From Escherichia coli (lineage in GTDB: Bacteria > Pseudomonadota > Gammaproteobacteria > Enterobacterales > Enterobacteriaceae), in the NCBI RefSeq assembly GCF_046105845.1, contig NZ_CP151004.1: a stretch of DNA of 64,000 nt. The stretch is one strand, 5' to 3'. The position numbers and the translations under genes were made by a program. Shown one piece after another: positions 14,409 to 15,088 of the stretch; the stretch's first letter is position 1; each line of letters starts with the position of its first letter. The notes beneath the pieces are model-generated. The model ran no database searches and was not told where the DNA came from. It worked only from the letters and a program-made list of their open reading frames with translations.

Positions 14409-15088
14409 TTAACGCAGGCTATTATAGTCATCAACCATTTCGTTGTACTCGCGTAACGCTCGCGGAAATGAGTCGTCGACCATCCAGCTTGTGTTTGCAT
14501 CCTGAAGTTGCTCTTTATCCCAGTCAGAGTACGGAACTTTATCTCTGACGCGGCGAACATATTTTTTAGCCTCGAGTTGATACTGGTCTGCCGAATTAAT
14601 GAACGAGAAATTCATACCGCCTTTATCCGCTTCTTTGGCCTGCGCCACCAGCGTTTCCAGTTCAGAGACTTTCTTCATTGCCGCATCAACATCAAACTTC
14701 TCTTGCGAAATCAGGTTATTAATTTGTTTCGCTGAAATCATGACTGCCAGAGAGTAGTAGTGGAATGTTTTCCCTTCTCTTTCTTCAATATTTTTCAATT
14801 CCGTAAGCTGGCGCTTGTCATTAATTTCCTGAATCGCCGCATGATAAGATTCTGCTACAGGTTCAAAGGCTTCCAGATTTTTAAGAATGTCTGGTGCAGC
14901 GTTTTCCCTTTCGCAAACGCATCGTCTTTATAATTTTCCTGGGTGTAATATTTATCCATTTCGTTAATGGTATTACCCAACGCTACGGCAGCATCAATAT
15001 AACTCACCGCCACGCCATCAATAGGTTGCAGCGCAGGCGTTAACGCCACTACACGCATTTTGTTTATAAATAAAATAATAAAATTCAC
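14409..15088 (-). pseudogene. yiiG-position gene remnant: two ORF fragments in different frames, N-terminus apparently missing
   Basis: ORFs 14855..15088 (77 aa, GTG start inside fdhD terminator hairpin) and 14409..14798 (129 aa, TTG start) are in different frames; manual reading shows the downstream frame stays open upstream to about 14900, consistent with a 1-nt indel near the run cgttttccctttcg; no plausible start or signal peptide. Confidence 0.4.

Follow-up and report, generated by a model that had tools for sequence, protein, structure and literature searches.

A probable yiiG pseudogene with a deletion and a frameshift between fdhD and frvR of Escherichia coli

Two adjacent minus-strand open reading frames (ORFs), 14855..15088 (77 aa, GTG start) and 14409..14798 (129 aa, TTG start), lie in different frames between fdhD and frvR in the window, the 64,000-nucleotide stretch of E. 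coli DNA (contig NZ_CP151004.1) analysed here. Their arrangement raises the question of whether they are two small genes, the broken parts of one gene or the outcome of a sequencing error. The original prediction, made from the letters of the DNA, had listed both ORFs exactly as they were found and had taken them for a frameshifted yiiG lacking its N-terminus.

The window reads as an ordinary E. coli chromosome, with the order rhaT, rha genes, carbohydrate porin gene, frvABXR, yiiG, fdhD, fdoGHI-fdhE and yih genes, continued by glnALG, polA, dsbA, mobAB and then an rrn operon. Without insertions, it is colinear with E. coli AST215 over the first ~39 kb; beyond 39.3 kb, it is colinear with a K-12-type strain. 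A Shigella origin, weighed because E. coli genomes match the window at best at only ~98% identity, was rejected in view of this colinearity. The stretch ~31000-39335 aligns with AST215 and not with the K-12-type strain, whose match begins at 39335 near the ompL/yihN boundary, so the gene content of the sulfoquinovose (yih) region differs from that of K-12. Two elements of ~100 bp each (23526-23630 and 25343-25444) match second sites of the AST215 locus at 91-94% identity. In AST215, the region where they lie follows fdhE and houses hypothetical genes and small genes of the ribbon-helix-helix type; the elements may be repeats of a dispersed kind or the ends of paralogous genes. The gene for a formate dehydrogenase alpha subunit of the fdoG/fdnG type (16165-19215, plus strand) is covered by two ORFs that share one frame, 16165..16752 and 16801..19215, and are separated by an in-frame TGA at 16750-16752 (gtc TGA cac); this TGA is the expected selenocysteine codon and marks no pseudogene, and in AST215 the gene is annotated as a single CDS of 3051 nt.

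Both neighbours of the two ORFs are intact. Upstream lies fdhD (15138..15971, minus strand; 277 aa, 834 nt), equal in length and position to the annotated fdhD of the compared strains, and downstream the convergent frvR (12611..14359, plus strand; 582 aa), equal in length to its annotated counterparts; by gene order against the annotated strains, the pair of ORFs occupies the orthologous position of yiiG. The gap between fdhD and frvR, first put at about 730 bp, measures 778 bp (14360-15137), and that of the K-12-type strain measures 1257 bp, an excess over the window of 478 + 1. At the fdhD end of the gap, folding revealed a terminator hairpin with a T-rich tail behind it (15095..15133, minus strand; 15-bp stem, 9-nt loop), which a simple terminator scan had overlooked because of the 9-nt loop. 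Its minimum free energy is -20.5 kcal/mol (z = -4.1), and none of 200 shuffles folded equally well; as a predicted strong terminator, the hairpin would shield the yiiG remnant against read-through from fdhD. The GTG at 15088, formerly placed inside this hairpin, actually lies 7 nt 3' of it, in the T-rich tail. At the other end, a perfect 12-bp inverted repeat read from the sequence, GTGTCGGATGCG / CGCATCCGACAC (14363..14387), lies where frvR and the remnant converge with their 3' ends. It is kept in every strain of the multiple alignment and is probably a bidirectional terminator or a REP-like element. A 6-bp insertion (TTTTGG) adjoins this repeat in strain B19695.

The relation of the two ORFs to each other emerges from their frames and from the family profile. 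The downstream frame, as had been noticed by manual translation, remains open beyond its first start codon in the upstream direction, as far as 14927 (172 codons), and the frames of both ORFs overlap across 14858-14927. Both ORFs score above the gathering score of 26.8 bits for PF12889 (DUF3829), the 77-aa ORF at profile positions 65-125 (E 9.5e-23, 81.6 bits) and the 129-aa ORF at positions 151-285 (E 2.3e-37, 129.6 bits), and intact K-12-type YiiG spans positions 2-285. As the two matches occupy successive parts of the profile, the ORFs are therefore parts of a single ancestral gene, and chance is excluded as the source of the collinear matches. When one A is restored, a 216-aa ORF results that is identical to residues 136-351 of K-12 YiiG at 205 of 216 positions, which together with the profile matches bears out the idea of one ancestral gene. 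No single continuous frame covers the whole domain in the window: positions 65-125 and 151-285 fall in separate frames, positions 126-150 are out of frame and positions 1-64 are missing.

In comparison with yiiG (b3896) of E. coli K-12, which likewise sits between fdhD and frvR, the remnant aligns over all of its retained 640 nt, whereas 64 bp of upstream sequence together with codons 1-138 are absent from the window and the frame is shifted at codons 194-196. The remnant falls into two minus-strand fragments. Fragment 1 (14883..15049) is homologous to K-12 codons 139-194; codon 195 falls within an A run (14878-14882), after which 7 out-of-frame codons reading IWKPLNL lead to a stop at 14855-14857. 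Fragment 2 (14409..14877), whose frame is -1 with respect to that of fragment 1, is homologous to codons 196-351 and includes the stop codon (14409-14411). Pairwise and multiple alignments with the K-12-type strain, O157:H7 and other strains gave exactly two length differences between the window and intact yiiG, a 478-bp deletion and a 1-base loss, so that alignment to the intact K-12 gene, the check proposed with the original prediction, exposes both lesions.

The deletion accounts for the missing N-terminus. Intact yiiG of the K-12-type strain encodes 351 aa, starts with MKRNLLSSAIIVAIMSLGLTGC and possesses a lipobox, just as the original prediction had described yiiG as a 351-aa lipoprotein. 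Relative to this gene, the 478-bp deletion is flanked by an 8-bp direct repeat, GTGGCGTT. The starts of its two copies lie 478 bp apart in intact alleles; in the K-12-type locus, one copy, at 1612-1619, precedes the ATG by 64 bp, and the second, at 2090-2097, falls in codons 139-141. The window retains a sole copy at the deletion junction (15042..15049, minus strand), located by alignment to intact alleles, and the deletion has 9 equivalent placements. The single repeat copy and the equivalent placements are the footprint expected of slipped replication or of illegitimate recombination between short repeats, by either of which the 478 bp between the two copies would have been lost. What disappeared with them is the promoter-proximal 64-bp stretch that contains the AAGG ribosome-binding site, the ATG and codons 1-138 with the signal peptide and its lipobox cysteine, which amounts to a truncation by 138 of 351 codons together with the start region. 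The ORF in the window begins MNFIILFINKMRVVALTP... and carries no lipobox, which agrees with the absence of a signal peptide originally noted for the upstream piece. With signal peptide and lipobox gone, any product would be unable to be exported or lipidated. The fusion created by the deletion happens to put an upstream ATG in frame (ATGCGTGTAGTGGCGTTAACG...; ATGCGTGTAGTGGCGTT...), and most truncated alleles have this fusion ATG in frame with a frame of ~213 codons that remains open.

The second lesion interrupts that frame. K-12 codons 194-196 read TTA AAA AAT, and the window is one A shorter, with an A5 run (T5 on the plus strand) at 14878..14882 where intact alleles and most truncated ones have A6. 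One A would have been lost from the A6 run by homopolymer slippage, which would shift the frame and end fragment 1 seven codons on. The break had been placed near 14900, at cgttttccctttcg; that run (14900-14913) is invariant in four aligned sequences, and an indel there was rejected, the A run at 14878-14882 being the sole local indel. With both lesions considered, the region 14409-15088 on the minus strand is best read, at a probability of roughly 95%, as a non-functional remnant of yiiG bearing a 478-bp deletion and a frameshift.

Among the alternatives, the one that fares best, though it is still very improbable, holds that the 77-aa ORF and the 129- or 110-aa ORF are separately expressed small genes or the parts of a functional split protein. 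Both ORFs are open, an automatic gene caller annotated 77- and 110-aa DUF3829 genes on the Logan contig, and the retained part is well conserved in sequence. These features have to be set against the collinearity of the pieces with one 351-aa protein, the loss of the lipoprotein signal peptide and lipobox, and a domain without profile positions 1-64 and with positions 126-150 out of frame. Nor do the surroundings of the ORFs speak for separate expression: a Shine-Dalgarno motif is missing ahead of every candidate start of the remnant ORFs, and no sigma-70-like promoter was detected in 14300-15250 by a crude consensus scan that was equally blank upstream of the intact K-12-type gene. The remnant is thus probably neither transcribed from a promoter of its own nor translated into a useful product. 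Independent lesions in other strains, namely a 134-nt deletion in Nissle 1917 and a 3' truncation in B2 strains, likewise argue against a functional split protein.

A second alternative, slightly weaker still, is that a homopolymer error of sequencing or assembly produced the frameshift and that the true allele is merely truncated, with A6. The original prediction had left the choice between pseudogenisation and such an error undecided; of the two, pseudogenisation is borne out, and the error is contradicted by the presence of A5 in other assemblies and on the UTI89 haplotype. The break does fall in a homopolymer, a classic site of error, and the 30 top-ranking full-length matches in the complete genomes, truncated alleles without exception, have A6. 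On the other side, the run counts just 5-6 bases, and an identical sequence of ~7.7 kb (7.2-7.7 kb) including both lesions is present in two further assemblies, NCBI GCA_018015415.1 and Logan SRR28309099, whose contigs were found via an exact match to the FrvR protein of the window. With a 45-nt query able to seed on A5 only, the A5 allele was found in 212 of the 5,426 complete E. coli genomes (187 exact matches), including UTI89, S88, APEC O1, IHE3034, NU14 and ATCC 11775; the UTI89 and APEC O1 genomes are presumably Sanger-era assemblies. In the window, A5 is moreover linked to the seven flanking SNP states of UTI89, a linkage that a random miscall would not give. Since the same A5 allele recurs in other assemblies and in 212 complete genomes, the frameshift is a genuine heritable allele, and its origin in a sequencing error is very unlikely; the 478-bp deletion would in any case suffice alone to make yiiG a pseudogene.

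That the A run might serve as a phase-variable or programmed-frameshift switch for YiiG, as the occurrence of both A5 and A6 alleles in the population could hint, is the least credible alternative, because contingency tracts are typically much longer than these 5-6 A, because the upstream fragment lacks a start, a ribosome-binding site and a signal peptide, so that neither state would yield a functional lipoprotein, because no A5 occurs in an intact yiiG among the matches listed (all unnamed 'YiiG family protein', that of UTI89 a pseudogene), and because A5 is found among the compared strains solely on a UTI89-type patch, which strain 181.1 carries with A6, a restriction to one haplotype that suggests a single origin over frequent switching.

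The yiiG remnant of the window belongs to a widespread class of alleles. Of the 5,426 complete E. coli genomes, 5,405 contain the yiiG locus and 3,916 contain the deleted segment as part of a 351-aa gene; by subtraction of the second count from the first, ~1,490 genomes (27%) carry a truncated yiiG. Queries across the junction returned 940 genomes with a strict 48-nt sequence and at most 1,495 with a looser one, whose halves intact genomes could match. The condition that had been named as speaking against decay, intact orthologs as short as the remnant and with the same start, is contradicted by the 3,916 genomes with the deleted segment.

RefSeq already flags a pseudogene in every truncated allele examined. 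PGAP labels those of GF60, B19695, Nissle, AR_0067 and MEW 'incomplete; partial in the middle of a contig; missing N-terminus', adds a 'frameshifted' flag for MSB1_7C and 181.1, and describes UTI89_RS28345 of UTI89 as 'YiiG family protein; frameshifted; incomplete; missing N-terminus'. In the literature on yiiG and DUF3829, no report of this pseudogene was found and no function was assigned to YiiG.

Further lesions have accumulated in other lineages. The remnant of Nissle 1917 bears an extra deletion of 134 nt (window 14777-14910), which is 135 nt relative to A6 alleles and hence in frame; B2 strains, as seen at the UTI89 and Nissle 1917 loci, lack frvABXR and the last yiiG codons; and the remnants of MSB1_7C and 181.1 contain other indels. 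Such lesions would compose the typical picture of neutral decay of a dead gene. In the B2 strains, the carbohydrate porin gene follows directly after the yiiG remnant, and the last yiiG codons are replaced.

The closest relatives of the remnant differ in which parts they share with it. UTI89_RS28345 and the alleles of 211 other complete genomes have the same junction and the same A5, and UTI89 is identical to the window over 15056-14710; UTI89 lacks frvABXR and the last yiiG codons, whereas the window retains frvR and has flanks of the GF60/MEW type. The truncated yiiG alleles of GF60, B19695, MEW and AR_0067 resemble the window in the junction and in the neighbours fdhD and frvR, but they possess A6 and a single frame of ~213 codons where the window has A5 and a UTI89-type patch. 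GF60 and MEW differ from the window by 8-9 SNPs over the remnant and are nearly identical to it in the flanks outside the patch.

The patch has a largest extent of 14710..15056, within which there are no differences from UTI89. At its informative sites, which span 14783-14984 and include A5, the window again shows 0 differences from UTI89 and 7 SNPs plus the indel against GF60, whereas outside the patch it is set apart from UTI89 by more than 20 positions and is near-identical to GF60/MEW. A UTI89-type patch in a GF60/MEW background looks most simply like a recombination tract, in which case a tract of 200-350 bp would have carried the frameshift between lineages, either into or out of the lineage of the window. 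Strain 181.1 shares the patch haplotype with the window and has A6, which indicates that the frameshift arose on that haplotype. From these haplotypes, the truncation would be an old and widespread allele, and the frameshift would have arisen on a B2-type haplotype such as that of UTI89.

The exact combination in the window is absent from the 5,426 complete E. coli genomes, the best match being 98.7% identical. Across the stretches 8000-22000 and 9611-17359, the best identity to any of these RefSeq genomes is 98.2-98.9%, and exact matches to the tested stretches were confined to GCA_018015415.1, SRR28309099 and one metagenome scaffold. The best identity over the 14 kb around the locus (8000-22000), only 98.4%, implies that the lineage of the window has rarely been sequenced. 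At least two divergent haplotypes, the GF60/MEW type and the B2 type (UTI89), have the identical deletion junction, and the retained part of the GF60 type has only 2 synonymous differences from the intact AST215 allele. Either the deletion may have recurred at the repeat or recombination may have shuffled it between haplotypes.

Whether a truncated YiiG could still act is a matter of the A6 alleles in other strains. Between truncated and intact alleles, dN/dS is 0.07-0.15 (Nei-Gojobori), a value based on too few sites to tell residual selection apart from an inactivation that is recent. The truncated A6 form may retain some function in other strains, and the low dN/dS may equally reflect divergence before the deletion; in the window, the frameshift removes whatever residual function the ~213-codon form may have. 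Intact YiiG is annotated as an 'uncharacterized lipoprotein', and a PDB sequence search with it gave no significant relative (best E = 0.07).

Two earlier studies offer the only clues to the function of yiiG that were found. By mutational scanning under antibiotic selection, one of them recovered mutations in its promoter and start codon (PMC11742677), and these would fit an advantageous loss of YiiG. It is nevertheless rather doubtful that yiiG nulls recur at the 8-bp repeat, or have been spread by recombination, because loss of YiiG is advantageous, since neutral decay with ordinary recombination explains the same haplotype data. A MarA ChIP-seq site, gcgcgttatgctgac, was reported inside yiiG of ETEC H10407 (PMC5684230). 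The site falls in the deleted 478-bp segment (~1950-1985 of the K-12-type locus), and is thus missing from the window and from ~27% of complete E. coli genomes.

For annotation, the finding means that the locus is correctly described as one yiiG pseudogene instead of the two small DUF3829 genes of one automatic gene call. The truncation allele could act as a lineage marker, and secondary lesions and recombination would have scrambled the remnant later. The extraintestinal pathogenic strains checked, UTI89, S88, APEC O1 and CFT073, have an inactivated yiiG. With the envelope lipoprotein YiiG inactivated in ~27% of complete E. coli genomes, the protein is dispensable in nature.
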